64,000 bases of DNA, from NCBI GenBank assembly GCA_039621445.1, contig CP154954.1, positions 12,332,716-12,396,715 on the forward strand. Reading direction: 5' to 3'. The DNA is from Euglena gracilis (lineage: Eukaryota). The notes below the pieces were generated by a model, which searched no databases, was not told the DNA's origin, and saw only the letters and a program-made list of their open reading frames with translations. Both the position numbers and the translations under genes were made by a program. Shown piece after piece: positions 1-55,031 of the stretch (positions within the stretch are counted from its first letter, which is position 1; every line of letters begins with the position of its first letter).

Positions 1-2009
1 GACGGTGGGGTACATACCGGGTAAAGAAAACACAATTGCCGACATTTTGAGTCGGTGGGCTTACCCGGCCTCACAAGCATTAAGGGACGTAAGCAAACAC
101 GGTTCAGCCGAGGATAAGGAAGAAATGGAGGAACTCATAAGAGAGGAAAGGGAAGACGAAAGAAATTGTTTGTGGATTGGAGTGAAAAATCAGCCCAACA
201 ACCGTAACACGTGGATTAGAGGGGTGATAACCCGTAGCGGGAAATTGGTGGAACCAAAAGATTCCATGGATAGCATGCAAGAGAGGGGAACCGAGAGTGT
301 AGTAAATCCGGGAGGCATAGACACCACCGTTGACACACACTCACAAGGGCCCAGGTCAAAGGGGAAAAAGGACAAAAAGTTGAGAGTCACTTTTTGGGAT
401 GGAGTGGACCCCGCGGGTAATTTGGTGACCGACCCAAAACTTTCATCCAATGAGTTACCGAGGGGGGGAACATGCACGGGAGAAGGTGAGGCCACACCAA
501 CTCCAAGTGTAACCCCCAAGGGAACAAATTCGGTTTGGGAGCAAGATTGGGTGGTTGCATACACTTTGTGTCCCACGTGGAAAAAGATTTGGCAAGCAAC
601 ACAAGAAAATGGTGAGTGGCCTAAGGGGGTGAAAGTCCACAAAAACCAAATGTTTCGAGAGGAGAAGTTGTGCATTCCACTAAGTTTTCAAGAAATGATC
701 ATCCTTGAAAACCACAAATTTCTTGGACACGTTGGTCCGGAAAAGGTGTGGAGGCACGTCAATTTGAGGTATGCATGGGCTGATGAAAAGAAGGCGAAAT
801 TTTTCACCGACAGTTGTAGCAAAAATTGCACAACATGTCAAGCGAGCTCGAGGGGGGAGACATTGAAAGGACCCATTGACTCAACACCCATACCACCCGC
901 ACCCATGGTAAGTGTGGCTATTGATCTTTTCAAAATGCCGAAGGTGTTGTACGAGGGGGGGGAGTACAACACAATGGCTGTTTGCGTGGACCGACATTCC
1001 GGTTGGATTGTAGCCATACCATGTTTTGATAAAGGATTAACGGGTGCAAAATTGGCCAAGGAAATGCTTAAAGCCCAATGGAAACCCTTTGGAGTCCCGT
1101 CAATAATTTCAAGTGACCAAGGGAGCCATTTTGTCAACACATGGTGGCAAACCATGTGTTCGCTCATGGGAATTCGGCAAGCATTTTCCCAAGCTTACCA
1201 CCACCAAGCAAATGGGAGGGTGGAGAGAGCCGGACAACAAATAATGGAAATCCTCCGAAAGTTGTTTGTGGAGGAAAAAATGAATTGGGTGGAAGCACTT
1301 CCCCAAGTTTTGGATCGCATTCATGACACAAAGGGGGAGAGTGGTTTTAGTCCTTATGAGATTTTATTCGGAAGGGATAGACCCATTGGGGGGATACCCA
1401 TTGGGGGGATACCCTATGAACCATCAAAGGAGTGTGTAGACACTCAAAGTTTCGCCGAATAAGGGAGGTGGATGAGAAAGTTGCTAAGGTTCTCAACCAC
1501 GCACATTGGGTTCAAGCGAGTTGGAGGAGGGAGTTGGTACCCTTAAAATTGGGAACCCAAGTGTGGTATAGGAGACCCGAAGGATCCGGAGAAAAATTGG
1601 ATTCCAGATGGATTGGACCTGGGATTATTAAAGCCCGGGAGGGGGAGAGGAGTTACATTGTTGAAATTAAACCCGGGATGGAAATGAAGGTTCATCGTAG
1701 TTTCCTGAAGGAATACAAAGAGCCTGAAGTTTTTGGTGAGGGGGTGTCTTTGTTCTTTTTCAAGAGGACCGAAAAAGAAGAGGAAGCAATGCCTGATGAG
1801 TGGGAGGTGGAGAAAATTCTGAACCACCGAAAGAAGGGGGGAACCAGGGAATTCCTCACGAAATGGGTTGGTTACAACGAGGGGGAGGAACCTGGGAGCC
1901 GGTGGGGAATTTCATACACCGATTTAGTGAGGAGTTGGTGAGGTATTGCACGAAGAAAAACCCAGGGGTCGATCTGATGTCCGAATTGAAAAAATCTTTG
2001 AAACCCTAG
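1..2009 (+). pseudogene. pol: Gypsy (chromovirus-type) pol, 3' part: RNase H C-terminus, linker, HHCC Zn-binding domain, integrase core, GPY/F-like region, chromodomain; two frameshifts (~1450 and ~1890)
   Basis: YIPGKENTIADILSR (end of RNase H); H-x4-H...C-x2-C (HKFLGH...CTTC); D,D35E core VAIDLF / ISSDQGSHF / QANGRVER; FSPYEILFGR; KLDSRWIGP; chromodomain WEVEKILNHR...FLTKWVGY...TWEP, split over ORFs 5..1462, 1432..1941 and 1800..2009. Confidence 0.95.
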
Positions 2010-14304: not shown

Positions 14305-17300
14305 TTTGGTGTTGGTGTTTTCTGTGGGGGGGGGGGGCACTTTTTTGCCTTGTTTTTGTGCCTGAATGGCGCACACTCATTTCGGCACAGCATACAATTA
14401 GGCATTGCCGGCTTGTTAGGAAGGTTCGCAAAGTAAGGCCGAGTATGGGGCCCACCCCATAAACTTGTCATGTTGGGCTGGGGACAAACAATTTTTTATC
14501 GACCTCCGGGGAGGGGGTCACTTCCACTCTTTCAAAAACCTGTCAGTCACTGCCCCCCCCCCCCGCCAGGATCGGTCATTCTGGAATCTAAGGGAAATTG
14601 GCCAATAAATGCGAGGCCAATGGCCGAAAAAAAATTCCCTTTGCCTTCGGCGACAGACCATTTTTGGCGGGTGTTTGCCCTCCAGAGGGGAAGGGGTTTG
14701 GGTCAAAAAGCAGTCAGTCACCACCGACCTCCTCCCCCGCCCCGGGAGAGGAGGGTCAGGCCATGATTGCATGGCTGAGGACCAGACTGCTTCAGCATGC
14801 CACTGGGCAATGGAAGCGCTCGTTGTTGGCGTGGACAGAAAGTTTGGGAAAACGTCCCATGATTCATCCTTGGTATATTCTGAGGAGTGGACAAATCAGA
14901 AAACCAAAGCTGGTGCCTGAACGGACATCCTGCCATTCACAGGGCTTTGAAGGGAGAAAAGGATCAAAGAGCAGTTGCCCAGCAAACTGGTTCTTTGAAG
15001 GTTGTGAGTGGTTGTGATCAGTCAGAAATCATGGGCTCATTTGCAAAAAAAAAGGCATAAAACTGAAATTTCTTGTGATGCCATGTGAAACGAACAAAAA
15101 AAATTCACAAGGCAATGAAACATTGCAATTATCAACCAAATCCGGACAAATATTATTAGTATTAGTAGTAGTAGCATTATTAATCAAATAATGTGGTGGC
15201 TACATGATGGCTACATGTGGTGGCTATATAATCATCATACTGTCGTTGTTGTTGTCGTCCTACTCCTCATTGTTGCTGCTGCTGCTGTTGGTATATTATA
15301 TTGTATGCTTGAAAAAATTTTGGCACCCTGGGAATCAAGTATCAAGACGACGTTAGGCGGCTTCAAAAATTTTCTCTGTTACAAACTGTGTTTGGGCCAA
15401 TTGTTAGGGGGAGCCTGGGGATGGGAACCGCGCCGCCGAAGGCGTCGCGGCCGGTCGCCTCCGGCACCCCTAAAAACCTTGGCCCAAAACGCTGTTCTTG
15501 TTCTGATACCGTGTTTGGGCGAAGACCTAAGGCTTTTGCTGTCTCAAAAATCAGCCCAAACGCGGGTTCGATAAGGGTTTGGTGAGTTCACAAAAATTCA
15601 AAAATAAGACCCTTTGCTGGAGAGATCCACCAACAGGCCTTTGAGAACTAGCATTGCTGACACAATGAGAATATAAGTGTACCCTCGACCAAATCTGCAA
15701 CTTGTCCGAGCTTTTCCCACACATGAAAACAAGTCGTCCAACAGCAGTTGGGCCGTATGGTACGGTCTATTTTTCTGAAACACATTGTTTTTGGCTGGCC
15801 AAGGGAAGGGGGAGGACTGAGGCCAGGGTTTGGTGTTCAGTCACCAGGGGTGGTTGGAGCGTCACAAATCGAGAGGGTTGAGGGACACTCCGTCAGGCAG
15901 TTTTTTACCAACCCCGGGGGGGAGGGGGGTTCGGAGTGCCTATAAGTGCAGGCCCAGGCAGGCACTACCCCCCCCCCCGGGGTCGGATTTCGGCCTGTGC
16001 CCAGGCAATTTGGTGTTGGTGTTTTCTGTGGGGGGGGGGGGACCTTTTTTGCCTTGTTTTTGTGCCTGAATGGCGCACACTCATTTCGGCACAGCATACA
16101 ATTAGGCATCAGCGGTGTCGGAACAATTTTTTCCCGGGGGGGGCGAGGAACCGACAAAATTTGGAGCACATCTTTTTTTTCCCCGGCGCGAAGCGCCGAG
16201 GAAAATTTTTTTCATGGCACAACCAAAATGTACTTTTTTCTGTCCCCCTGGCCCTGAAGGGGCCGAGACGCTAACGCCTTTTTTGAAGTCCAATGCTCCA
16301 AAAACTTGAGCTAGAAAGCGAAATCATGGGTAGAACCCCTTTGGAAACCTCCCAACTCAACCCAACTGTCGACTTCGCAACCTGGGGGGGGCGAAGAAGC
16401 CATTTTTTTCACTTTGCGCACAATCATTTTTTTTGTTGACCCGAATCCCCGAAACTCGGCTGGTCAAGAAAATGGAGGGAGGGAGACATATGGGGATATC
16501 AGTTTGTATTCAAACAGCCAAGGTGAAAGTGGTTTGTGGGGTCCCAAAAAACAAAAAGCACCAAAGGAGGGGAAAAAAAGTCGGTTTGTGGCCCCGGCGT
16601 TCCTGACGCCGGGTTTTAGGACAGAACCGGCGTCCAGAAAACCCGTGGGGGGGGACGCCGGTTCTGTCCTGAACCCGGCATCTCAAACGCCGGTTTAAAC
16701 ATCAAGAAGTGTCGTGGGTTTTTTTCAAGGATTTTTATTTCGGCCGCCAAAGGCGGCCGAGACGGTAATGGATTTTGCAATTTCATTCTCCAAAAATGTG
16801 CTTTTAACTGGCAAGGTGGCTGCCGAAGGCAGCCGAGACGGTAACGCCCTTTGAACCATTGAACATGGCATTACAAAGAAAAATATCACATTCATGCTGC
16901 AAAAAATCTTTTTCTTTCCAAAATCCCGGGGGGGGCGGCCGCCCCCCCCGACCCCCCCTTGTGACACCTATGTTAGGCATTGCCGGCTTGTTAAGGTTCG
17001 CAAAGTAAGGCCGAGTATGGGGCCCACCCCATAAACTTGTCATGTTGGGCTGGGGACAAACAATTTTTTATCGACCTCCGGGGAGGGGGTCACTTCCACT
17101 CTTTCAAAAACCTGTCAGTCACTGCCCCCCCCCCCCGCCAGGATCGGTCATTCTGGAATCTAAGGGAAATTGGCCAATAAATGCGAGGCCAATGGCCGAA
17201 AAAAAATTCCCTTTGCCTTCGGCGGCAGACCATTTTTGGCGGGTGTTTGCCCTCCAGAGGGGAAGGGGTTTGGGTCAAAAAGCAGTCAGTCACCACCGAC

Positions 17301-21545: not shown

Positions 21546-22405
21546 CTCGGAGCATCCAGAGTTGCCGGGGACCCGCCTGAAGAGAAAACCCCGGTCAAAA
21601 AAAAAACAGCAGGGGAGCCGCAAAGCAGGAGCATATAAAGGCGGGGGCCTGTGGTGGCTCACAGGTCAGCATCACAATAATGTGGGGCTGGTGCAGCCTT
21701 TCTTCCTAAAGCCCGGGAGAGCGCCTAACCTTCATTTTTGAACAGTTAACTAGTTAACTAGAGGCCCCAATTATTTAATTGACTGCCCCCCCGACAGTCA
21801 ATTAATTGATCACCCTTGCAGCAGGGCCTGTCGCTGGCCTTGTTTTCTGGGGTGGCCGCCCAACTGGGTGCTCTACTCATAACCAAGGAACTGGGTCACA
21901 CCATTGCTGCCTTTTGAGATGGCCTTCGGTAAGTGACAAGCTTGACCCTGTGCCTCTGGTTTTCCTACACCCTCGCCCACCTCGCGCTCCGTCAAGCGGT
22001 GCTGGCCGTGGCTTCGGCCGGACGTTGCGCTCTCTGCCCCCGTTCTCACTTGTACTACCCTTTTCTCCACCCACCCTCCTCCTCACTCCTTGCACACACT
22101 GTGCCTGGATGGATTCGGTTCGCCCCACCACCGTTTTTACGGCTGGCTGTCTAGTTAGGTCCTACCAGGGAGTTCACGGTGGTGGGGCGAACCGAATCCA
22201 CCGACCAGTGGCACAGCCTACTGGATTTGAGTGTTCGAGGGTGCGAGGCTATATACAACGAAGGAGCGTGGGTCGAGTGGTGAGAGCAAGGGCAAAGCCC
22301 AAGCAGAGAGCGATGATGGGTGGAGAGGTGTGAAGTGTGCATGCGCGGTGGTGTTCTCCGGCTTTGTGGCTCCGGAAAGATGGTGCAACGAGGAGCATTT
22401 TCACC

Positions 22406-23870
22406 TTATGAGTTCAAGATCATACGATCTGTGGCTCTTTCGGCCAACCGCAGCTGCCGTGCAACTGCACGGGTCAGGGTGATGGCCAGGTTTTCGGTCA
22501 ATTCCTGAAGTTTTCGTTGTTTGGCTGTTCCAGAATATGAATTGGTCGCGAGGCGTAAGACATCGCGTAGCAGTTTGGAGGCTGCCGGTCCTGTGCAACC
22601 CCAGGGGTTAAATGCAGCCCCGATGTACTCCCACTGGTGGCGGGCGCACCGTTCTTCAGCTTGTGTTCTCTTGTGCATTTCAGCGTCTGGTAAAGTGCGC
22701 TGAACTCGGGTCAAGTTCAGAGGCCACCGTGATGGGGCCAGCGGGTGTTCAATGGTGACATCCACAGCGAGATGCTTCCCTTTGTTCCACCCCAGGAGAA
22801 GGAGATCAGCGTCACGGGTGCCACCCTCGCATCCCTGTTCTTTGCGAAGAGTGATGCCGGAGCGCTGGCACAGGTCAAAAATGGCGTCACGAACACAGTT
22901 GTGCCTTTCTGTTATGCCATTCCTTCTGCAAGCCAGGAGGTGATCGCCAAATGGATCGACTGCCTCAGCACACAGGGGGCACAGGAGCATGTCCGTTGTT
23001 GGGATCAGGGGTAAGCCAGTCCAGAAGCGTAGAAGCAGTCTGTATTCGTCCGGAGCCAGGACGGTATTCACCGACCTGGATGGTAAGACGGTCATCCAAT
23101 TTTGAAGGAAGGCAGAGGATTGGCAACGAAGCCTGGCAATGTCCCGAAGAGGTGCACCCTCCTCCAAAGTTGCCACGCGCACGGCGTGGAAACGTTCGGC
23201 CCACCACGATTGAGTGGAGTGATCTGGGGTGGAACAGGCCAAGGAAGAAGGGTTGGCGATCCAGGAAGCCAATGGTTCGCTGTGTGGGCCCAAAGTGTCA
23301 CGAGCCAGTTTGGCGACGGGGATGGTATCTGGTAGCGGGAGCAAGCGCCAGGGCGGAGGGATATTGAAGCCTGGCGCTCGTTGGGAAAAACCCACGCAAG
23401 CAGCCAAACGGGCAGCTGGTCTTTCCAACTGGGGGTCTGTGATGCCCCACCCTGTCTTATTGCACGGCAAGGTGATTTGTTTCCAATGCAAGGCAGACAG
23501 GGGTGCCCCCACAATGTCACAGGCAGCGCTCCGGATGGAGTCGGAGATCACTTGCACACTGTGAGTCCCGGAGGAAATGTTGGTCTGACGCAGAAGGTGC
23601 GTGACGCGGCAGCCATCCAGACAGTTGCGCAGCAAACAATGTTGGAGTTGAGGATCCGGCAGTTGTTGGAGGCGCGAGATGGTAGCTTGAAATTTTTCGG
23701 ATGCCTTGGCCCACGTGGTGTCAGAAAAGGTGCAGTCACCAGGATAGTCGCAGGGTACCCCTAGGCACAGGATGCCACTGCCCGGTCCCCATGGGGTGAC
23801 CGGGAAGTTTTGTGCAAGGTGGTCGGGAGGCAGGATCTGAAGAGCCGCGGGTTCGGAGTGGCACATGGTA
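22406..23870 (-). CDS. C-terminal part of the polyprotein: RT thumb, CCHC knuckle and restriction-like endonuclease
   Basis: THLLR; QITLP..TGWGI; CPLCAEAVDPFGDHLLAC; RHN motif (ERHNCVRD); RDADLL...AVDVTI (PD..D-type catalytic motif). Confidence 0.9.
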
Positions 23871-25350
23871 CACCTGGTCCCCACAAGGCACACTTAGAGG
23901 GGTTGAGGTGGAGCCCAACGCTGCCAAGTGCCGTGGCCAGAGAAGCCGTAAAAGGCAGAACATCAATGGCAGGGCCGATGACAGTGCCGTCGTCCAAGTA
24001 CCATGCCTGCCACACCGTGTTGGGCAAATTGGCCGAAGCCTGTTGCAGCGCCTGATGGAGACCCAAGGCAAAGGCAATGGGCCCACATGTGTCCCCTTGA
24101 TGGACACCGGTCCTGCTGTGACACAGCACGTCACCCTGGCACAAAAGTGGGACGTCTTCTCCGTAGGAGAATCGGAGCCAGTTATAAAGGGACGGGCAGA
24201 GGTCCAGGGATGCCTGCAGGAACGCGGATCGATCAATGGTGTTGAAGGCGTTGGAAACGTCGGCCTGGAAAACCACCCAATCGCCATCCACTGGCAGAGA
24301 CGCCAGTGCGGCCTGTACCGCCAACCCGACTGTCTCCGCTCCGTAGCGCACCCCCACTCCCAATTGCTGCGGGAACAGCTGAGACGTTTCCGCTTTGCAC
24401 TGCGGGTGTCGCAACAGCATTTTCCCAATGAAGCGCCGCAGGCAATCCCCCACGGCGATCGGCCGTAGACCGCCATCCTTTTTGGTAAGTGGGATCAGGT
24501 TTGACGTACCAAAGATGATCGAGGCTTTTGCTGGCAGAGAGCCCTCCCAGGCCTTCTGAGCCAAGGACCCCAAGGCTGTGTGCAGCGGGCCTGTCCCGGC
24601 CTCACGGTCCAACAAGTCCCGAAGGTGTTGAGGACGGAGACCAGATGGGCCAGGGGCGCTGCCACGGGGGAAAGAGGCTGCAGCTTCTTGCACAATTGAA
24701 GACCAGATAAAGTCATTAGTCTGTGGCGTATTGCCTGCCCCAGGTAGCGGCAAACTGGCTCGTAATGGAGACCCCTGTGGATGGAGCGAAAGGAGCTTCT
24801 GCATCACTGCTGAATCCCCAGGCGATGCCAGGGGCAAAGAGGTGAGAGCGTCCACGGCCTTGCCGAGGGCCCCTTCTTCAACGAGTCCGCGCACCCGGTC
24901 CATAAGGCCACGTGACACAGAATCAGAAGTAGAGCCAGAGGGGTTGGCGCGGGTGGTGGGCCGCTTTCGCCGTCTGTCAGAGCGAAGCGGATCAAACAAA
25001 GCGGCAAACTCTCCTGCGTGCCACTGTGCCAGTCTCTTTTCCAGGAGGCAATGCAATGTGTGTTGATGGGAAGACGAGGTTTTGGGAGGGGCACCAAGAA
25101 CGAGTTTCGGAAAAATGAACAGGCGGGGTAGAGCTTCCCAGGTTTGGGCTTGGAGAAAGGTCTGAATGGAGGATGCAAGGGCGTCACAAATGGCGTGACG
25201 ACTTGATACTGGGATACGGCGAAGAGTGGGGCAGTTGGTGGAGAGAACCACCTGCAGCTCGGGCTGCAAATCTGGGCACGGGAGAGACAGGGGAGTGCCA
25301 ATCCCGACGGGTTGGTGCGGTGAAGGGGAAGTGGGACGGAGGGGTGTGGA
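23870..25350 (-). CDS. Reverse transcriptase (CRE-type)
   Basis: SAPGPSGLR; LIPLTKKDGGLRPIAVGD; QQLGVG..GAE; DVSNAFN; GVHQGD..GP..F; WYLDDG (YLDD at 23989-24000); GLHLNPSKC. Confidence 0.96.
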
Positions 25351-25766
25351 GAAGCGTGGACGGCCGAGGCACCCTGGTGGGGGCATTGGCAACGTTCTCT
25401 TGCCCGTAGCAAGGTCCGACAGACGGCGCAAGTCGTGGTCGCAGTAGCTCGCAGAAATTCGGGGGGGGGGGATCGTCCGGCGGCGACGTGTTGAGAGACG
25501 TGAGATAGGACCTGAGAGCGAGTCATGGTTGTCCGCGAGCGTGGGCAATCTGCAAAGGGGCAGGTGTCATGGGAGGCAAAGGAAAACCCCGGACCAGGGT
25601 CGGACGGTAGGCCGGGATGCAGCGTCGTTGCTGCTGGGGAGGATGGTGCGGGGGACAGGGAGGCCAACGCCATTTCTTGAGACAGACCGGTGTGGGGTAT
25701 AGAGGGTGTGGAGGCTTGTGACTCCCGATTGTGGCGTGTCTTTTTGGCGGAGTCCCGATTGGTGTT

Positions 25767-25830
25767 GGGCCCCGGATTACTCTCGATGTCGCCGCAGGAG
25801 AGCAGGGCGAAACCTCTGCCAGAGCGCAGA
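25767..25830 (-). other. 2A/StopGo ribosome-skipping peptide ...GRGFALLSCGDIESNPG/P
   Basis: Exact D(V/I)ExNPGP motif preceded by LLxCG, in frame in ORF 24804..28073. Confidence 0.9.
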
Positions 25831-26219
25831 AGGGCAGTTAGGGAGGAAAAGGGTGGCAGCCAGCGTTCCTGAGCGGAGGTGGGGAAGCGGAAGGCGCACC
25901 GAGTGGGCGCCGGACGTGGCGGAACTGTTGCCCGGGATGGTAGTACGGACGAGCAAAACCAAGGCCAATGCCACTCCTTACAAGAGCAGCATTGTATTGG
26001 CGGTGGGAAGCGGGTGTCCCAAAGTGTGTGCTGATGGAAGACGAAAAGGCGTTCCCGGAAGGCCAGCACCGGGGATGAGGTGTGTCGTTGTATCCATTTG
26101 AAAGACTTGTGCCAGTCCACCAGGGATTCAGGGAAAATTGGAGGCTGCGGGAGTGAGGAGGGGGGCAGCGTGAGGGAGGATGGGGAGGGGCACAAGCGTG
26201 ATGATGTGGGAGGCTGGTG

Positions 26220-26609
26220 GATGAGGAGAATGATGGTTTGCCACCGGGGCGGAGGGAGAGGATGAATACCGAAACGTCGATAAATAGAGACGGGAGGAAG
26301 GAGCATGGAAGCCGATGCCAAGGCAAGGAAGTCATGTCGCGCAGGGTGATCGGAGGGGCAGACAAGGAACAGATGGCCTCCTTCCGTCTGAAGTTTGCGG
26401 AGGACGAGAGGAAGAAGCGAAAACGGAGGGTTGGCCCAAATAGGCTGCGGCCTGCTCCAATCTTGGAGAAATGCGTTCTGGTGTTTATCCCAGAAGGCTG
26501 GGCATTGGCTGTTGTGCGGCGCCGCAAAGGCGTCAATAATAGGGAGAGAAGTAGGTGAGAGCGTGTGGACGGCGACACGAAACCAGCCGGGCTCGAGCAT
26601 GTAGTCATC
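26220..26609 (-). CDS. Amino (probably N6-adenine) DNA methyltransferase domain, phage Dam/DIRS-type
   Basis: DYML...IDAFA..HN.QC..FW....NAFLQDWS....WANPPFSL...VL.KL..EG..L.LV.P; motif I-like IDAFA and catalytic NPPF at 26421-26432. Confidence 0.85.
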
Positions 26610-28760
26610 CGCGAGAGGCAGTCCGGTGTCGGGGGCTCCCGCTGGGAGAAGGGAGGAATTTGGGCGGGTTGGGCCTGCTTGGCTTGAGCGGCCCACTGGT
26701 GGTGGACACGCAGGGGGATGGTACGGCGGTATCAAAAGATACCCCTGCCCTGGCGTGGGAACCACCGGGGTTTTAGCGGAGGGGTGGGCGCCCGGACGAA
26801 TTTGGGCAATATCCGGCAGAGCGGGTTGGTCTTCTGGGCTCACAGAGGCGGAAGGCAGGCTGGTGGGGGGGGTAGACAGGTGTTCCGTGGTGCAGCTAGA
26901 AGTGTGAGCAGAGAGAAGGAGGAGAGTGTTCCGAAGGGACGAGGTCTGTGTTATTTTTTGCAAACAGAGCGTGCAGACGAAAAACCTCCCCTCCGTAGGG
27001 CGGAAGAGAAAGTTGCACCAGCGGCGCAGCCAGATTTGTGCGGCCACAAAATTCCTGCTCCGAGCGTACTTTCTTTTCCGCAGGCAGATGGTCCGAAAAC
27101 GTGCGGATTGGCTGCGCCAATGGCTCAAGTACACCCCTTTGGGTACAGCTGGCTGAGTGGCCGCCCACTGTCGCAATGAAGCGGCGGTGAGGGCAACGCG
27201 CCGGCCGTTGAAGGACATCGCCCCGTAAAGATCCTCCCCCCCATTGGATGAGACATTGCCAGGCGAAAACAAGACCATGGGGGACTGTTCCTGGTCACCT
27301 GATGAGGGACGGTCCGAGAGGGATGGAGGCCCCAGATAGCTTGTGGGGAAGCCATCCGGGTCCCCATCCGCCCCCCCGGGCCCCGAGGCTGAGGGGGCAG
27401 CGCACGGAAGGGGGAGGGGCAGGACAGGGGGCAGGGCAGGCGTTCGCCCGAAGGCCAGGGCTGGGCCAGCAACCGGGGGGAGGGCGGAAGCTTGCACCGA
27501 AAAAACCGTGCAGTCCGCCGAGCCCTGGCCTTCCCACAGCAGTGCCTGCTGCAGGGCCGGGGGAAGGCGCTGCCAAGTCTGTATGGGGATGGGCCCATAC
27601 CGGCTCGGCAGAGCCATCCCAGACCAGCTGCGGGGCACCACCACCTTGATCTGGGGCCCCCCGGCCCCAGGTGTGGTGGAGGAGGGGGGGGGGCAGGGCA
27701 GGAGGGAGGCCAGGGGGGGGAGGGGGCAGCGGAAAACCAGAAAACTGTGGGAGAGGGGGCTGTGGGGGGGTGAGGTCTCCAAAGCCTTTTTTGTGGGTGT
27801 CAACATTTTTGGGAACAGGACCACTGGGAGAGCCAATAGCAGGGGCAAGTATGTATACTGAATTGTGGCTGTCTGAAACATTTGCTGCAGAAACATTTGC
27901 TGCAGAACCCTTCTGTCCAACATTTGTGCACTGAGGATTGGGGCTACCAGAAACATTTGCTGCGGAAACATTTGTTGCAGAAACATTTGCTGCTGAACCC
28001 CTCTGTCCAACATTTGTGCACTGAGGATTGGGGCTGCCAGAAACATTTGCTGCAAAACCCCTTTGTCCAACATTCAACACTTGTCCAACAGTCCTCGATT
28101 TGAAATGCTTCCCAATGAACCCCACCCCAGACACAGGCACAACAGGGGCAAGGGAAGCCACTGGGGGGGCACTGTGACCAGTTTGTGGGGGGGGGGGGCT
28201 GTGTGTCACACTGGGGGGGCCAGATCCCAGCAAATCAGACACAGGGTGGGTGGGAGAGGGGGTGATTGGGCTCACAGGGGGGGGGGAAGAACACATTGAA
28301 CCAGGGGTGGGGGCAGATTGGGGGAAGAGGGGGCAGGGGGAGCAACGTGCCAACCAGCCAAAGCTGGAATCTGGTCAATGGGGGGCTGTGACACAGGTGA
28401 AGGGGGGTGGGGGGCTGTTGCTGTAGCAGGGGGCGTCGTTAGGCGGAGCAGTTGTTCTCGAAGTGCAGCCTCCTCAGCTTTTTGTTTCTTCTCCTGTGCC
28501 TTCATTCTGGCTTGCAATTGCTTCAGCTCCACATGTAAATTGAAGATAGTTCGATGTCGTTTGTCAGGCCGCTTGCTTTTGCCCTTCAGCACTGCTCTGG
28601 TCTGCTCCTCTGGCTGCTTTGGAGGGGGCATTGGTACCTCGTTGACACTCTGTACTGAAGCCGGACTGAGGGTAATGTCCATCGGGTCTTCGACATCATC
28701 CACAGTAATCTCATCCGGGATATCTTCAGACCCCACCAGGGGCTTTGCATTGTCCGACAT
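26610..28760 (-). CDS. N-terminal part of the retroelement polyprotein: coiled coil, Pro-rich and repeat region, C2HC-like Zn finger; two frame breaks at G/C homopolymers
   Basis: ATG at 28760, 10 nt after the SL; ELKQLQARMKAQEKKQKAEEAALREQLLRL coiled coil; AANVS/PNPQCTNVGQ repeats at 27875-28075; CTLC...H...C near 26890-26975. Confidence 0.65.
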
Positions 28761-28770
28761 GATATGCGAA

Positions 28771-28795
28771 CGAAAAAAAATAGACACTCAGAAAG
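28771..28795 (-). other. Euglena-type spliced-leader exon sequence
   Basis: Minus strand reads CTTTCTGAGTGTCTATTTTTTTTCG, identical to nt 2-26 of the Euglena SL exon ACTTTCTGAGTGTCTATTTTTTTTCG. Confidence 0.93.
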
Positions 28796-31739
28796 GTTCA
28801 CCAGGGTTCACATTTAGGATTTGCGTACTAAGGGTGTTTCCTAACTTTCATGAACGGAAAATGAAAGGTTTCACAGATTTTATCTTTCTTTCAGAGCAGT
28901 TTTCATGAATTGAACAACCCTAGCCCTGTATATAGCCTTACTCCCCCAAACACTTCAAATCCCGCTGGGGAGACCAACCTAGCCCTAACTAAGTTGGAAA
29001 GTTACGCTGCTGTCATTTGCCAAGTTTCGCGAAGCCTCAACCAACCCCCATGCCCTGAATTGTTTGTTTTGTTTGACATCATCTGCATTTTCTTTTTAAA
29101 AAAAAATACAGATCTCTGACCTTCCACCTCTAGTCCACTTCATCAATTCTGCCCATGCCCCCCAACATCCAGGGACAACGGGATGCCCCTGTGCCTCCCA
29201 TGTGTGAGCAGCAAAGGCAATGACCTGGGGCTGATGCCGCCAAGGCTCACGCCCCCAGCGAGCCTGGGCGAGTCTCCCTGCTCCCCCCCCCCGAGGGCAG
29301 CTCCGACGCTCCGACGCCCCCAAAGCACAAGCAGGCTGGCCCACACGTCATCGGCGTTTGCGCTGGGCTGTGATCCGAGGGAGTCGCCGCCAAGGATCTC
29401 TCCCTCGGTGAGCCCGGGCGGGCCTGTCCCTCCCCATGGTGCTGCCGCAGTCCCCACTGCCGGCCATTCCCACTTCCCTTCCCCGAGGTGCACCCGCCGT
29501 GTCAGTGCTCCCCCCTCATCCCTAGCACCAGCCCACAGTCGGCCTCACCATCGCCACCTATTCCATCCCTCCCCCATCTTCACCGTCCATAGCGGGGGGT
29601 AGATCTGGCCTGGGGGGGGGGGGGGCTAGGGTGCCAACCCTAGGGTCAGCCCACGGTCGCCAAAGGTCGCCAAAGGTCGCCCAAGGTGGCGTCCGGGAGA
29701 CCCCCCTAGTGGGCCGACCCTAGGGTCGCCGGCTTAGGGTCGACTTAGGGTCGGGGGTCGTTAGAGTCGACACCCCTCCCCCCCCCCCCGGTTACCGGAT
29801 CTGGGCGGGGGGGGGGTGGGTGGTAGTGGGCCGACCCTAGGGTCGGCCCACGGTCACGAAAGGTCGCCAAAGTGAGCCACAAAAACAACTTACCATGCCC
29901 CCCCATGTAAGACCCCCCCATACCCTTCCAATAAGTTCACTTACAAACTTCATCTCTCTTGATAACATAAACTTGATAAACACATCCTTGTAACTTGAAT
30001 CCCTCTAGATTTCACTTCTCAGACATCTGATGCAAAAAAAAAAAGATTCTTCACCAGGGCACGTTGCGTACCTGTGGAAGAGAAAAATAAGGAATGGCGG
30101 ATTGTTCGCGATTTGGTTATAGCGCGGGGTTTATTAACGCGGGGTTTATTAGCGCGCTTCGGCCGTGGAGCGCGCGGTAATACAGCGCGCCTAAAATGGC
30201 CGCGTTTAAGCCCGAGCGGGAATTACCCACCCGCGGTAATTGTCGGTCCCCGGTATAAGACACTCCCCTGGCCGGCCTTCGACCGGCCCTTTGGCCGGGA
30301 CCGACCCCCCCCCCCCCATATAAGACCCCCCCCCCAAAGGTGTAGAAGTGGGGGGTCGGGGGGGGGGGGGGGCGGGGGACGGCCGCCCCCCCCCCGAGAT
30401 TTTGGGAAGAAAATTTTTTGAAAAGTGTGTGATTCACTCATCACATTGTTCGTGCTTTTTTCAATTTCTCACTCTGAGAACTCAACTTTTCATTGTACTT
30501 TTGGGTGTTTTGCTGTTGGACATCGCTACCGTCTCGCCGCCCTTAGGGCGGGCAAAGACGTCCTGAACTCATGGCTCGGAAGAGGCGAAAATCTCGGCAA
30601 CAGGAAAACATGCATCTCCAAAGCACTTTTTTTTTCTTCAAGAGCACACAGTTTTTGTTGACAAGTTTGGCTCTTTTTGAGGAAGGTTTTTGGATTACCG
30701 TCAGCCGCCCTTTCGGCGGCAATATATTTTTTTGTTCTGACACAAATCCTAAAACACAAAAAGACGTCACCGTTGTTGGGCGGCTCTCCCAAATTGTGAT
30801 GGATTGGTGGCATAATGTAAAAATGGCTGCCGTTTAGCCGCCCTTCGGGCGGCTTGAAAGCTTCCAAGTTGTGATGGATCGGTGACACAACGTCAAAAAT
30901 TGCCACGATTATTTTTGTTACATTCAACGCCATCTTTTTTTTAAAAAAAGCACTACCGTTATGCCGCCCTTCGGGCGGCTTGAAAGCTTCCAAGCAGACC
31001 TCCATTTAGAATGTATCACCAAAAATTTTTTTTACGTATCGCACGTATCACAGCCTAAAAATTAATGTATCACATATGTATCACCAAATTTTTTTTACTG
31101 TATCACATATATGTATCACCAAATTACTGTATTACTGTATCATATATATGTATATATGTATCACCAAATATATTTTAATGTATCGCATATGTATCACCAA
31201 TTTTTTTAGATTTTTTACATTTTTACATTGAATGTTTTTCCCCTTTCTGTTCCGCTTTTCATCCTTGTTTCTTTGCCTCTCTGCAGACAAATGGAACACT
31301 TTTCTTGTGATAATGCTTTGGAGGACAGCTACGCGGAGCTGTGCAACGTGGAGGACGAGGGCATCCCCGATTCGCCTCCTGGAGAGGGTTTTTTCATCAG
31401 AATCTGCCCCCCCCCAGAAAAAAAATTGAATGTGCCCACCTTGGCCTTTGACAGGCATGAAATTCTCTTTTGATGAGGTGCACAAGAAACTCAGAGAACT
31501 GCCCAGTGCAGTGCTGTCGACGAGGCAACATCGTCCTTTGATGGAATTTCTGTTTCCAATTCGAGTGGGGATTCCATCACAGAAAGTAGTCTTTCCGCTT
31601 CTTCCGAAGAGAGTGGGGCGCAGTGGGACCTCGAATCCTCTACAGAATCATCCTCGTGGCATCAGTCGGGGTTGAGGAGGTTCCAAGAGAGATGGCAATT
31701 GGAGGTCGTTTCAACACGGAAGGAAGAAAGTGATCACTC

Positions 31740-32075: not shown

Positions 32076-33923
32076 GGAGCTGGGGTCCCCACGGCCAGCC
32101 AGACCTCCTCCTCCTCTTTTTTCACCAGCCACCAGCCAGACCTCCTCCTCCTCTTTTCTCCCAGCCACCAGCCACAGCCTCCTCTTTTTTTAGTGGCTTC
32201 AAAAATTATATAGGGCGAAGACCGCACGACGCAACCTCCTCGGTTTTTATTACGCTCGACGGCTGCGCTCGCCAGGTTTAATCACAACATCCACCCAGGC
32301 GGATGAATCAACAGCGACCAGCAGTAACCGGGGTCCACGGCACCAGAAGTGCTGCGCAAGACGAGACTATTTATTTTTCGGGTGGATGAACATTTCTTCG
32401 ACATTTTTGACGGCAGCACCATATGACTGCGCCGGAAGAACCGGAAGGGGGGGCAGTCGACCCCCCCCCCCCACACCCACCACAACATTTTCACCAATTT
32501 CGGGGAAACGGGGATTTTGGCCAGGAAAGTTTTTTGAAAAATAAAACCCAAAAACACGTGATTCTTGAAGGGAAAAAACTTTTTTTCACAAAAAATCTCA
32601 AAATTTTCCGTCCTAAAAACTCATACTTTTGAGGAGGGGGGGGGGTGAAATAAACGAAGGTCAAAAAAGTAAACAAACTTTTGGCACAGTCAAACTTTAC
32701 TGACATTTTTCTCGTTGAAAAACACATATTTTGCCAAAAAAAATGCAAACAAAATGCTTTTCTGCCCCCCCTTTCCAAGAGAATGGCACCCAAACAACTC
32801 CTTCCTGAGAGAATCCTGTGGCCCAAAAGCTGGCCACCACATCTAGCCCAAAACTGGCCAGAACATGTGGCCCAAAACTGGCCAGCACATCTGGCCCCCA
32901 AAAAAAACCATGACATTGCACAAAATGTGAAATGCAAAATTTTGGGTCGTTTGCCAGATTGAAAAACTTCTCCCCCAATTTTTTGGCTTCCAAGAACATT
33001 TGTTGAACAGCAAATAAAGAACGCAAGGAACAGAAATGGCAGTTTCAGACGAAAACCAGCATCTAAGGACAAAATGTCTGTGAAATCTGTCTTCAGGTAG
33101 AAGTACCAAGCAGAAAACAAGTAGACCCACCAAGGGCCTGTCACCGTGTTGCAGGCAGGCCTCTGCTCGATCGAATGTGTATGTGTTCAGAGCAAAGGCC
33201 TGAGTGGCCTGCATGTGGTGATGTTGGCCCTCTTTCCACAAAGCAATAAGTTCCTGTATTTTCACTTCATTTCAGCACCCTGTACTTTCATCATAACCAT
33301 CCCACGCCGCTTCCACACGAAATGGCATTGTGACACCGAAGGAGAAGGATTGGGAATGCAAGCATTTCTTTGCGTGTAGGTGATTCATAATTTCTTCAAA
33401 AAAAACATGTGCTTCGGTCTTTGATGTGCCCCCATGCACCAAATTAACTAGAACAGAAATTTGCATACTACAACATTCAAAATGTGGTATTTTTTCAAGA
33501 TGTGTTCTCTCCCGAACTTTCTTCCGCTTCGCTTCATTTCATGGACTGGTCCTTTTTCTCTTTTGGTATTCCGAAGTGTATCGTGCACACAGTATAATTG
33601 GTGCAAGATGCAGTTCGGAACTGTGAGGTCGCGGGTTCAAACCCCGCTGTGTGCAAGTTTTCGTCATTGGAAAATCTTTTTTGTAAAGAGCACCCAGAAT
33701 TAGGACTTACCCAGTTCGCCACAAGAACTGAAAAAATTTTCCACCGCGGCCAGCCAGACCTCCTCCTCCTCTTTCCAATCCTCAACCCAGAATCCAGCCA
33801 GACCTCCTCCTCCTCTAAATCCCCCAGCCAGCCGTGGCTGGCCATGGCTGGCCAGACCTCCTCCTTTTTTTTTGCCAGCCAGCCAGCCGCGGCTAGCCGC
33901 GGCTAGCCAGATACCCCAGCTCC
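32076..33923. mobile_element. GGAGCTGGGGT-TIR family, copy 2
   Basis: Same 11-bp TIR as copy 1; 3-bp TSD ATG; same subterminal and 21-bp repeats as 6778-8164. Confidence 0.88.
33585..33655 (+). tRNA. tRNA-like sequence (CGG in the anticodon position, Pro-like), probably a pseudo-tRNA or SINE head
   Basis: Acceptor stem GCACACA/TGTGTGC; T arm GCGGG-TTCAAAC-CCCGC; anticodon arm TGCAG-TTCGGAA-CTGTG; A-box-like AGTATAATTGG; D arm short and irregular. Confidence 0.55.
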
Positions 33924-36164: not shown

Positions 36165-37322
36165 TCTTGATATAGGGGCCCTCGAACAGTTGGGCAACAA
36201 AAGGGATTTGCCCCCCCAAATCAGTTGGGTTACACAAGGGATTTTGTTATTTAGGGGCCCTCGAACAGTTGGGCAACAAAAGGGATTTGCCCCCCAAGTC
36301 AGTTGGGTTACTCAAGGGATTGCCCCCCAAAATGGGTGGGTAACACAAGGGATTTGTCCCCCAAAAATGGCCCGAAAATTTCCTTTTTTTCTTTTTGAAG
36401 GGGGGGGGAGGTCGTGGTGTGGGCCGACCCTAAGTCGACTCTAGGGTGGTGGGGGGGGGAGGTCGTGGAGTGGGCCGACCCTAAGTCGACCCTGGGTCGA
36501 CCCACTGGGGTTTCTGGGGTCGCCACCCACTCCACAGCCTGGGGGGGGTCGACCATAGCGACCTTTGGCGACCTTTGGCGACTGTGGGCCGATCCCAAGG
36601 TTGAGCGCTTGTTTTTTTTGAAACAAAAAAACATGTTTTTTTAAAAAAACTAAAAAACGTCATGGAGGGTTTGGGGGAAAATTTTTTGCAATGTTTTTTT
36701 TTAGAAAAAAGTTCATTTTTATCTCTGCAACATTCATTTTTTTTTTGGTTGAAAGCATGATTTTTTGCACCAGAAAACACAGATTTGGATACTTTCACAC
36801 ATAAAAAATTTTTAGAGGGCCTGTGATGCCTAATTTGACAAAATATTCAGGTGGATTCCTAATTTTGAGGCATAAATTTCGCAAAATTTGGAATGGTGAT
36901 GCCTAATTTGGTGTCAAAATGCTAATTTTAGGTTGGGGATTCCTAATTTGGAGCCTAAAAAGGATTTCCCCCCAAAAATTCGTTTTTGGTGATTCCTAAT
37001 TTGGCCACCGAAAATGTGATGTTCCCCCGTGACCCCCCCCCCCCCGTTACCCCCCTCGTGACCCGAACCACCCCCAAAAAATTTTCTTCAAAAAATGGCT
37101 ATTTCGCAAGGAAAAAGGTCAATTTTTGCTTTTTCAAAAAAACATGTTTTTTTGTGTTTTTTTTAAAAAAGCATGTTTTTTTTAAAAAACAAAAAAAAAA
37201 CGTCAACCCTGGCCGATCCTAGGGTCGGTCCACTACCCCCCCCCCAGGCCAGATCCGGGAGCTGTCCAGAGCCACGTTTCAGCTACAGGAAGCAATCCAA
37301 TCCCCTCGCCCCGTGCAGTTCA

Positions 37323-37373
37323 TGGTTGCGTGATCTTTGTGCAGATGGTGACATTGAACCAAACCCAGGTCCA
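37323..37373 (+). other. Second, orphan 2A-like peptide WLRDLCADGDIEPNPG/P
   Basis: Exact DIExNPGP motif in ORF 37173..37595. Confidence 0.7.
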
Positions 37374-37559
37374 GCCAAACGTTCCCCAGGATGCCGGAGC
37401 AATGTTCCTGATAGCACATCAGAACGGGCACATGTTGATGGGTCCCACACGCACATCCCCCCCTGGCTGAAAACGCACATCCACTGGACGGAAATGGGGG
37501 GACATGGGGGAGATGCCACCATAGATTCATTTAAGATTGTGTTACCCCCCCCCCCCCCC

Positions 37560-39058
37560 GGGGAGTGGGTGTTTAAAAAAAAGTCAAAAAATTGAAAATA
37601 GTTTTGTTTCACGACGATGTTTTTTAGGCCTCCCGGACCCAGAAAACCTGTTTCTGAGCCCAAAATGAGCATTTTTCGACTCCCCGGCACCCCGTTTTGG
37701 GCCCGAAACCCATGGAGGGGTCGAACCCCCCCCCCCCCCCCCGGGGTTCGAACCACCTTGGAAACCGGCAGATTATCATGGCTCCGTTCCCGGAATTTTT
37801 TTTTATCAGTGTCGAGCGAATGGATTTCTAGTTGCCGAATCACGTCCGTTTGACCCAACTCCCTGCTAGGACCGAGTTATTCAGATGTGAAGGGGTCCAA
37901 ACTGGGTAGGATTTGGCCCCTCTTCCAACTCTGCCATTTCGCCAGGGACCAAATAACGAAAATATCTTGAGAAAACAGACATTATTTTCTGACGAAATGC
38001 ACCCCCGGAGGCCCTTTATCACCCTCCTGTTTGCCATTTTGGCCACTGACACGCCTGGCCCGTTCCGGCGCGCTTTTGCGGCCCAAACGGCCATTTTGGG
38101 GTGTTTTTTTGGGCCGTTTTTTTGCTCAAAATATCTCGACAATGAAGCAAAATCAAAGAAAATGTCCAGACAGCAAAAATGAAGCCCTTGGAACACTCTA
38201 TCCAACCATGGTTTACTTTCCCCCCAAACTCTTCGTGTAGCCCGGGTTACGGCCATTTTTCGGCCAATTTTGGCCCATTTCAGGGCCATTTTGGGTTGTT
38301 TTCAAAGTATGTTTGAAATGAAGTAAAATTAAAGGAAATGTCCGGAGACATAAATTGAAGCCCTTACAATGCCTATCTAATGGTATTTTGATTTCCCCGC
38401 AACTCCCTGCATGGCCTGAAATGTGGCCCAAAACAGCGCGGCAGGCATCCGACTTGGCCGTTTTTGGCTGTTTTTTTGGGGCCAAAAAATCAATTTTTCT
38501 AAATTTTCTCAAAAATGGTCGGAATCAAAGGAGATGTCCAGAGATCTGAGTTGCAGCCCTTTAAATGCCCTATCTAACAGTATTTTGATTTCCCCACAGT
38601 GCCCAAGTTATGGCCATTTTTCGGCCAAATTTGGCCATTATGTACAGTTTTGGCCTGTTTTGACTTTTTTTGGCCGTTTTTGATTTTTTTGTGTCGAAAA
38701 ATATTGAATTTTTTTGCCCAAAACGATGTTTTTTGGCCTCCCGGACCCGGAAAACCTGCTTTTTTGAGCCGAAAATGAGCCTTTTTCGACCCCACAGTGC
38801 CCTGTTTTTTTGGGCTGAAAACTGTGGATTTTGGGTCAAAAACGGGTCAAAAAAGTCGAAAAAATCGAAAAAAATTTGTTGCCTGAAACAATGCTTTTTT
38901 TGGCCTCCCGGACCCAGAAAAGCTGTTTTTTTCAGCCGAAAATGAGACCCCCCGGGGCTTTGTAAATCTTAAATTACACGAAGTTTGCAGTGCCAGTCTT
39001 TTCGTCCTTCCATTACGTGCAAGTCCTATTAAGGACTCAGCACTATTCAAAACCTGGT
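37560..39058 (-). repeat. Inverted copy of the repeat family at 51550-54480
   Basis: Reverse-complement matches such as GGCCTCCCGGACCCAGAAAA, CAGCACTATTCAAAACCTGGT and GGGTCCAAACTGGGTAGGAT. Confidence 0.8.

Positions 39059-54998: not shown

Positions 54999-55002
<4 letters not shown>

Positions 55003-55031
<29 letters not shown>

Follow-up and report, generated by a model that had tools for sequence, protein, structure and literature searches.

Within a 64,000-nt stretch of the Euglena gracilis genome (GenBank assembly GCA_039621445.1, contig CP154954.1, forward-strand positions 12,332,716 to 12,396,715)—here called the window, to which all coordinates refer—positions 22177–28795 of the minus strand hold a 6.6-kb retrotransposon without long terminal repeats (LTRs), near full length and frameshifted, in surroundings rich in repeats. 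An earlier note, made by a model from the letters alone, had described positions 22406–28795 as a CRE-clade long interspersed nuclear element (LINE) that encodes its own Dam-like methyltransferase (MTase), set off by a 2A peptide from a reverse transcriptase (RT) and a restriction-like endonuclease (RLE). We put at roughly 0.8 the probability that the element has this modular architecture, that the MTase belongs to its family rather than to this copy, and that the template for transposition is an mRNA led by the spliced leader (SL) of the host. Read 5′ to 3′, the SL is followed by a first open reading frame (ORF1), a Pro-rich link, a CCHC-like finger, the Dam-like MTase, a Cys-rich module and the 2A peptide, and then by a C2H2 pattern, RT (YLDD), CCHC knuckle, RLE and 3′ untranslated region (UTR), as follows:

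28800–28806 (−): direct repeat CCCTGGT, 7 bp, upstream copy, with GAAC filler between repeat and element
28771–28795 (−): SL exon copy, 25 of 26 nt with the first A missing; 5′ end of the element (exact match; copies diverge at 28795/6)
28761–28770 (−): 5′ UTR, 10 nt, from the SL to the ORF1 ATG (direct reading of the sequence)
28272–28760 (−): ORF1, 162 aa plus TGA, predicted as one long helix (AlphaFold2, AF2, single-sequence model; no Pfam family matched)
27300–28271 (−): Pro-rich low-complexity link with QQMF repeats, reading frame uncertain
26892–26975 (−): CCHC-like zinc-finger pattern C-x2-C-x19-H-x3-C (pattern; no Pfam match)
26205–26609 (−): predicted Dam-like N6-adenine MTase core, with IIDAFA at 26523–26540 and NPPF at 26421–26432 (PF05869, AF2, Foldseek)
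25953–26024 (−): Cys-rich module WD...CxxC...WPWxC, between MTase and 2A (motif by eye in relatives)
25767–25826 (−): 2A (StopGo) peptide ending GDIESNPG/P, with GDIESNPGP at 25767–25793 (in frame with the MTase)
25488–25562 (−): N-terminal zinc-finger pattern of the RT-RLE protein, C2H2 type, C-x4-C-x14-H-x3-H (pattern; a comparable one at the same position in the relative P0039)
25323–25329 (−): frameshift 1, one base short against other copies (tblastn frame change; sequencing-run contigs)
23881–24486 (−): RT domain, with YLDD at 23989–24000 (RVT_1, E 1.2e-10)
23851–23852 (−): frameshift 2, A-run one base short (tblastn; sequencing-run contigs)
22670–22981 (−): CCHC knuckle (22928–22981) and RLE (RHN 22898–22906; D 22799–22813; DVT 22754–22762; K in 22670–22687)
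22406–22408 (−): TAA stop of the RT-RLE frame
22177–22405 (−): 3′ UTR, 229 nt, with no poly(A) after it in this copy (loose ends of contigs at 22176/7)
22164–22170 (−): direct repeat CCCTGGT, 7 bp, downstream copy

Every feature named in the earlier note (SL, coil, fingers, MTase, 2A, RT, CCHC and RLE) is present on the minus strand and in the order given there. Of the extent proposed, the 5′ limit holds and the 3′ limit falls, since the element continues through its 3′ UTR to 22177. A stop-free frame of 1089 aa (P0001), running from about 27300, contains the CCHC-like pattern, the MTase, the Cys-rich module, GDIESNPGP and the C2H2 pattern, and so bears out the statement that MTase and 2A share one uninterrupted frame; RT and CCHC-RLE lie in two further frames beside it. 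Within the window we found neither a second copy of the element nor an LTR or other terminal repeat belonging to it.

Class and parts of the element

A profile (A1) built from 23 RT-RLE sequences, the RLE ORF of the window included, aligned with solved R2 proteins (9nl3_A, E 1.7e-31; 9dou_A, E 2.9e-31) from the N-terminal extension of the RT to the end of the RLE. The alignment covers R2 residues 411–1149, with CxxC..H..C, RHN, D..D(V)T and K, and the invariant columns of A1 are C, C, H, C, RH, E, D and K; L1 ORF2p matched the profile across the RT part only. Because the match to R2 runs on through the RLE, the element is, on the evidence of its predicted proteins, an RLE-type non-LTR retrotransposon of R2-like architecture. 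Like R2Bm and R2Tg (8gh6, 9dou, 9nl3), it would encode an RT protein with N-terminal finger(s), RT, linker, CCHC and a C-terminal PD-(D/E)XK endonuclease, the profile alignment extending over ~730 positions at E ~1e-31 and the protein after the 2A measuring ~1120 aa; unlike R2, it lies outside ribosomal DNA and has an ORF1, an MTase module set off by 2A, an SL start and a conserved tail that is not poly(A).

The absence of LTRs, a read depth that falls from the 3′ to the 5′ end and a 7-bp direct repeat for which an empty-site contig exists (see below) are hallmarks of a non-LTR element. No Pfam family for a tyrosine recombinase, an integrase or an RNase H matched the four element ORFs at E ≤ 1; the first and last of these are the marks of DIRS elements. 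The CRE-clade label is without support from protein comparisons: no named CRE, SLACS, CZAR, NeSL or R4 protein turned up among the matches of three large protein searches, and the only PDB references were R2 and L1. The ESM Atlas returned only generic RVT_1 clusters.

Upstream of the MTase frame, ORF1 is modelled with one helix of 42 residues (residues 67–108, window 28437–28562) at a predicted local distance difference test score (pLDDT) of 94–96, and the remainder is Pro-rich and predicted to be disordered; the coiled coil named earlier agrees with this helix, which is a single-sequence prediction. The link of ~1 kb between ORF1 and the MTase frame is Pro-rich and repeat-bearing, a minority of the contigs introduced below have a 1-nt length variant at 28277, and ORF1 and the MTase frame may form one ORF or two in intact copies. 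CxxC...H...C modules like the first finger were seen by eye in the relatives P0157, P0011 and P0039 and in the metagenome locus L001.

The methyltransferase and its relatives

A HMMER search with the MTase-2A region over 1.84 billion representative proteins returned 426 relatives at E ≤ 1e-3, 78 of them at E ≤ 1e-10, and those looked up came from metagenome contigs of 3–7.5 kb. Among the best 150 MTase relatives, 137 keep (N/D)PP(F/W/Y/H) and eight run on into a LINE RT. MTase and LINE RT occur in one ORF in 15 of 145 RT-family proteins, 33 of the 145 having a 2A motif, and those of the 15 ORFs with MTase, 2A and RT that reach their own C-terminus also have the RLE. Pfam searches found Dam together with RVT_1 in P0002, P0007 and P0039 and Dam only in P0011, and confirmed six of six proteins in a second set. 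P0002 (1294 aa) runs uninterrupted through MTase, Cys-rich module, 2A, RT and RLE; P0039, P0157, P0201, P0202, P0210, P0215, P0216 and P0218 are built like it, with more 2A sites. A scan of metagenome loci with an MTase alignment (A3) gave two short loci, neither reaching the end of the element: L001, with finger, 2A and MTase in one open frame, and L002, a lone DIRS-like MTase.

An MTase tree (FastTree, 129 domains after 23 of 152 rows were dropped as short matches; unrooted, local supports) placed the window in a supported (95) set of 44, made up of 23 rows with 2A, seven with 2A and LINE RT and 14 short ones, with six rows bearing DIRS-type RTs in a separate supported (98) set of 21. In an RT tree (FastTree, 110 RT-RLE rows with ≥700 aa of homology, the window read through with X; unrooted, local supports), all 11 MTase-bearing rows, the window among them, fell into one supported (100) set of 45, and none of the other 65 rows has an MTase. 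Median pairwise identity over 11 elements (55 pairs) was 39.7% for the MTase core, 37.1% for RT-RLE and 28.3% for the linker, and divergence of the MTase was correlated with that of the RT (r = 0.74). The congruent trees, the similar identities and this correlation together indicate that the MTase has been inherited with the RT under similar constraint. Judged by these comparisons, the MTase is a family feature of a lineage of RLE-type LINEs, not a one-off insertion or an assembly chimera; a one-off insertion, which the earlier note would have accepted had other family copies lacked the domain, is contradicted by the 15 ORFs with MTase and RT and by the trees.

More distant MTase matches (RT-RNaseH-Dam, Dam-RT, Dam with a C5 DNA methyltransferase (DNMT), integrase-Dam-RVT_2) are DIRS- and LTR-borne forms. 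Among them, P0132 joins an integrase and Dam to RVT_2, a Copia-type RT, and in P0054 Dam is accompanied by a C5 cytosine methylase. A 2026 preprint (bioRxiv 10.64898/2026.05.21.726589), cited here and below for parts of its text, describes dual-methylase ‘EpiLTRs’ and Dam in Gypsy-type elements; those parts contain no Copia-type Dam case.

In the Dam-profile check that had been proposed, the MTase region matched PF05869 at E 5.7e-9 and 36.3 bits, above the gathering cut-off of 28.1 bits, and the sub-region alone reached 37.8 bits. An AF2 model made with an 80-row alignment gave residues 1–135 of the region a pLDDT of 93–98, predicting a five-stranded sheet with flanking helices, like the preprint’s description of the DIRS and LTR domains. 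Foldseek placed adenine-N6 MTases at the top of its PDB matches (PCIF1/CAPAM, E 5.4e-4, then KsgA, Dim1 and Erm); at the level of sequence, the MTase profile found nothing meaningful in the PDB (best E 0.25) and phmmer with P0002 found no match there. D, F, A, W and NPPF are invariant across close relatives, with NPPF and D-x-F-A present in 14 of 14 sequences of A3. The model thus supports an amino-MTase fold, of a kind for which a fold search cannot separate DNA from RNA substrates.

What the domain may do is a more tentative matter. It would, on the reading we put forward with reserve, methylate the N6 of adenine in the new cDNA or insertion (or in element RNA), tuning the copy to host chromatin marked by N6-methyladenine (6mA) and 5-methylcytosine (5mC). 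The main rival, itself a possibility to be entertained rather than adopted, is that the MTase has no part in DNA methylation, acting instead on RNA (as N6-methyladenosine, m6A, in the transcript or at a cap-adjacent adenosine) or serving as a binding or structural module of the particle. Several results tell against a DNA methylase and lend themselves to this rival: the PF05869 match spans only profile positions 30–79 of 169 (50/169), and the domain is truncated relative to bacterial Dam, the model lacking two strands of the full Rossmann MTase; the Foldseek matches are modest (E 5e-4 to 1e-2, template-modelling score ~0.3, for a 281-aa model that includes disordered parts); the best of them, PCIF1/CAPAM, KsgA, Dim1 and Erm, are RNA, not DNA, adenine-N6 MTases; and, according to the preprint, Dam proteins of DIRS, LTR and adintovirus origin expressed in E. 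coli produced no 6mA. RNA methylation has also been raised for the ORF1-borne DNMT of SymbioLINE in the portion cited of de Mendoza 2018 (PMC5890265). On the other side, NPPF with D-x-F-A in 14 of 14 sequences and the (N/D)PP(F/W/Y/H) motif in 137 of 150 argue for some retained catalysis, Dam-bearing LTR copies have more 6mA, in E. gracilis too (same preprint), and the fold matches are blind to the DNA or RNA nature of the substrate. These mixed 6mA results are why methylation of cDNA or insertion has only our partial commitment, and why a role directed at RNA, or one without catalysis, is kept beside it.

The 2A peptide GDIESNPGP is the only NPGP in the three sense frames of the element. It matches D(V/I)ExNPGP in full and comes directly after ...LLSCG, a context in which we take it to resemble the T2A peptide, and it sits at a module boundary, with an equivalent position in P0002, P0006 and P0157. 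A 2A motif occurs in 51 of the best 150 MTase relatives, often flanking the MTase on both sides and up to five times (P0018). That the motif returns at the borders of modules throughout the family speaks for the 2A being in use; ribosome skipping at the motif would release a free MTase-containing protein. Between MTase and 2A, the WD...CxxC...WPWxC module shows the same motif by eye in P0002, P0006, P0016 and P0157, matches no Pfam family and is modelled as three short strands (pLDDT ~75). Several 2A sites occur without an MTase in P0206 and P0155, which belong to the same RT cluster, and two such sites in Diplonema P0196, which lies outside the cluster and within the wider RT family; because 2A occurs without an MTase both inside and outside the cluster, 2A-delimited modules appear to be the older habit and the MTase one cassette among them. 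A second strict 2A motif, DIEPNPGP, is found elsewhere in the window in an isolated open frame of 142 aa (37167–37595, plus strand) with no recognisable domain beside it, perhaps left over from a related element with 2A.

Spliced leader, insertion site and other copies

Other copies were followed in Logan contigs of two DNA runs (X1, X2) and two RNA or possibly-RNA runs (X15, X18), aligned to 21800–29300 and kept at ≥90% match; the DNA runs gave 1757 and 5880 contigs. The 5′ end of the element (28771–28795) is identical to positions 2–26 of the E. gracilis SL, in the sequence given in PMC6242988, and is the single SL match in the window, where none is expected (none in 100 shuffles); judged by this leader, the host is a euglenid. 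The ATG of ORF1 stands at 28760, ten nt past the end of the SL. A dinoflagellate SL as 5′ leader was considered and dropped upon the Euglena match, its motif being absent within three mismatches.

In the DNA runs, copies are alike up to 28795/6, the first base of the SL stretch, and diverge beyond it. In X1 and in X2, one contig each runs from 22163 straight to 28800, leaving out 6636 nt and sharing 7 letters; this empty paralogous site contains the 7-bp direct repeat CCCTGGT and no SL. Both junctions of element and flank have a short GAAC-containing filler, and the flanking sequence consists of other repeats, among them an inverted tail fragment at 22111–22133. That fragment (plus strand; context 22100–22140) derives from the conserved 3′ tail described below and lies 43 nt past the 3′ end of the element, tail to tail.

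CRE-clade elements are recognised by insertion inside the exon of an SL-RNA gene, so that halves of the gene flank the element. CRE1/CRE2, SLACS and CZAR resemble the present element in their euglenozoan hosts, RLE-type architecture, zinc fingers and association with the SL, and an SL that marked site-specific insertion of this kind, as the CRE label implies, would fit an RLE-type element in a euglenozoan. The cited part of the Diplonema genome paper has gene models annotated as SLACS reverse transcriptases, and the Diplonema protein P0196 belongs to the wider RT family. The locus itself looks otherwise. Here the SL runs to its very last base, with 10 nt of UTR and the ORF1 ATG directly after it, no SL-like sequence lies 3′ of the element, Rfam found no SL RNA in the window and only weak, chance-level matches around the element, and the empty-site contig joins flanks of other repeats without an SL. 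Insertion into an SL-RNA gene is therefore very improbable, and for this copy the suggestion is largely refuted. An empty site without SL, a complete SL with the element’s own UTR and the lack of a second SL nearby place the SL in the mobile unit: it is part of the insert, not of the target, unlike the arrangement in CRE1/CRE2, SLACS and CZAR.

The simplest reading of an SL-led copy is that the template of transposition was a trans-spliced mRNA, and the start at SL position 2 would reflect reverse transcription halting one base before the capped end. An X18 metatranscriptome contig ending at 28773 has the SL joined to a slightly different 5′ UTR (...TCTTTCGCATAACATG...) and looks like a sister subfamily with the SL junction shifted by 2–3 nt. 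Contigs from X15 and X18 cover parts of the element; as DNA may be present in these libraries, they were not counted toward transcription.

The element family is highly repeated. Summed depth in X1, a sum over copies and relatives and not a copy number, is ~1400–1600 at 22302–23305, ~500–700 in mid-element and ~200–450 toward the 5′ end, the pattern of 5′-truncated LINE copies. Copies part ways at 22176/7, where contigs have loose ends of low agreement (46+25 in X1, 88+36 in X2), and this divergence assigns the 229-nt 3′ UTR to the element; the UTR has no unusually stable RNA fold (z = 0.29). Its last ~55–60 nt (22177–22236) reach a depth of 62625 in X1 against ~1500 in the body, ~40-fold more, and contigs leaving the tail at 22230/6 continue with sequence resembling the element’s own upstream UTR. 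We read this tail as a conserved 3′ end common to several related subfamilies. At least 11 contigs, among 69 joint records, link an SL start to a tail end across 2–36 differing letters; full-length copies thus often lie head to tail, just downstream of an older tail, a possible sign that insertion favours the surroundings of existing tails. Circles of extrachromosomal DNA as the origin of these joints were ruled out, the spacers varying between contigs.

Comparison with intact relatives by tblastn shows that the three frames are one gene split by two 1-nt frameshifts, near 25324/5 and at 23851; the three RT-RLE frame segments contain no internal stop codon. At 23851, every covering contig has the extra base (X1 465.8/465.8, X2 7223.5/7223.5 and X15 4.08/4.08 of depth, one contig each). 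The extra base at 25324/5 is found in the one X1 contig there, at 231.4/231.4 of depth, and in X2 at only 2725/12957 and 1553/10100. Copies with the RT-RLE junction in frame therefore exist, and the family has intact and apparently recent members.

The rest of the window has other features. An open frame entering from the window start (2–1462, plus strand) resembles, by eye, an LTR retrotransposon polyprotein at its integrase end, and a tRNA gene at 33585–33655 (plus strand; RF00005, 33 bits) is the sole Rfam match at gathering score. Two 300-nt copies at 14421–14720 and 16993–17292, 2572 nt apart, are 100% identical; with further repeats (D10) around 14.3–18.8 kb, they probably represent another repeated element. 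Long (GTAT)n and (CATG)n microsatellite arrays, interspersed with 137–300-nt repeats, occupy 54870–57540.

Proposed cycle and relation to known elements

These data suggest a cycle in four steps. The element pre-mRNA would be trans-spliced, giving an mRNA led by the host SL, as the complete SL followed by the element’s own UTR implies. Translation of the polyprotein would then break at the 2A, the motif being observed and the skipping presumed, to yield a product with finger, MTase and Cys-rich module and a zinc-finger-RT-CCHC-RLE protein of ~1120 aa. The latter would nick the target and begin target-primed reverse transcription at the conserved ~55-nt 3′ tail; full-length products would begin at SL position 2, and incomplete ones would account for the fall in depth from 3′ to 5′, a pattern that is observed and a mechanism borrowed from established knowledge of R2-type elements. 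The last step would fall to the MTase, a module passed on vertically within this LINE lineage, maintained by selection and akin to the Dam-like domain found in DIRS and LTR elements.

The earlier note had likened MTase and RLE to a restriction-modification pair, in which the MTase might mark or protect targets or the element. Taken as a shield of the element or the genome against the element’s own nuclease, the analogy has as its only basis that one element contains both a PD-(D/E)XK-type nuclease and an amino-MTase. It finds no support: P0206 and P0155 lack the MTase within the same RT cluster, so that the RT-RLE works without it, DIRS and LTR elements have the same MTase without an RLE, and new copies adjoin older tails, which does not suggest protection of element ends; we regard such a pairing as highly unlikely. 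A chimera—an unrelated LINE with a Dam fragment of DIRS or LTR origin nested in it, or a misassembly—was named as nested insertion or assembly artefact for Euglena Dam with LINE-like RTs in the cited text of bioRxiv 10.64898/2026.05.21.726589 and might be thought to fit the frameshifts of this copy, but is scarcely credible given the single uninterrupted frame of MTase and 2A, the identical order in 15 independent ORFs of other assemblies, the congruent MTase and RT trees with their correlated divergences (r = 0.74) and the colinear cover of the MTase-2A region by short-read contigs from several runs.

For the reading of an inherited MTase in an RLE-type LINE copied from SL-led mRNA, the following have to be set on the debit side. 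The window copy is defective or carries assembly errors and, as read, is unable to make the RT-RLE protein; most X2 depth at 25324/5 agrees with the window, and many family copies may share that frameshift. Relatives are metagenome proteins at 35–47% identity, the protein collection contained no near-identical protein of the element at the lengths searched, and the contig depths sum over copies and relatives. No AG dinucleotide lies between the SL end and the ATG that could serve re-expression and renewed trans-splicing of a DNA copy already beginning with the SL. The activity of every part is predicted from sequence.

A wider picture, speculative and as a whole unlikely, would have a lineage of RLE-type LINEs in euglenozoans and environmental eukaryotes use 2A joints for exchangeable cassettes, one of them an active N6-adenine MTase that marks cDNA or insertion with 6mA and thereby lets the copy escape the 5mC silencing that is the default of the Euglena genome, and borrow the host SL for its cap, with DNA-encoded SL and head-to-tail clustering aiding re-expression.

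The earlier note had regarded this compact MTase as characteristic of DIRS elements. That view is outdated: Dam domains, formerly known only from DIRS, are reported in the preprint from DIRS and Ty3/Gypsy-like LTR elements, and E. gracilis is among the hosts of Dam-bearing elements, some Euglena ones having LINE-like RTs (bioRxiv 10.64898/2026.05.21.726589). The present element has PF05869 in common with them, in the same short form with NPP(F/Y/W); unlike them, it is non-LTR and RLE-type, with the MTase set off by 2A and placed in a separate supported MTase cluster. The main-text parts cited name neither an endonuclease type nor a self-cleaving peptide, and the supplements may list more.

SymbioLINE-Dnmt of Symbiodiniaceae, an APE-type LINE (with an apurinic/apyrimidinic-type endonuclease) whose separate ORF1 encodes a C5 cytosine MTase (de Mendoza et al. 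2018, PMC5890265, in part), is likewise a LINE with an MTase upstream of the RT in a trans-splicing protist, with target-site duplications, conserved UTRs and no poly(A). In place of its C5 MTase and Exo_endo_phos endonuclease, the Euglena element has a predicted N6-adenine-type MTase, an RLE and a 2A. In the cited portions of Odon 2013 and 10.64898/2026.06.17.732966, 2A peptides of LINEs are described in APE-type elements only (L1Tc, ingi, CR1, L2, Crack). These too have D(V/I)ExNPGP in frame in a polyprotein, and L1Tc and ingi are also euglenozoan; unlike them, where the 2A precedes the endonuclease, the present element is RLE-type and its relatives delimit fingers and MTase with up to five 2A sites.

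In the literature searched, we found no MTase or 2A in CRE-clade elements and no published Dam-bearing RLE LINE, 2A in an RLE-type LINE or SL-led euglenid LINE copy, although the preprint’s supplements may list LINE class; to that extent, and with its main text covered in part, the earlier hunch of novelty is sustained. What is new here is a combination of known kinds—RLE LINE, transposon-borne Dam domain and 2A—together with the SL-led 5′ end.

The element extends transposon-borne Dam-like MTases from DIRS and LTR elements to non-LTR elements, a third class of carrier, which strengthens the case for the Dam-like domain as a general advantage to retroelements. It offers a possible explanation for the Euglena Dam elements with LINE-like RTs that the 2026 preprint left as chimeras or artefacts, and an aid to annotation of the repeat-rich Euglena genome. 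It also carries 2A peptides beyond APE-type LINEs, to an RLE-type lineage that would use them repeatedly as module boundaries, while the SL at the start of genomic copies points to trans-spliced mRNA as the transposition intermediate. In practical terms, it would offer an R2-like system that is compact, seems to have been active recently and comes with natural T2A-like sites.

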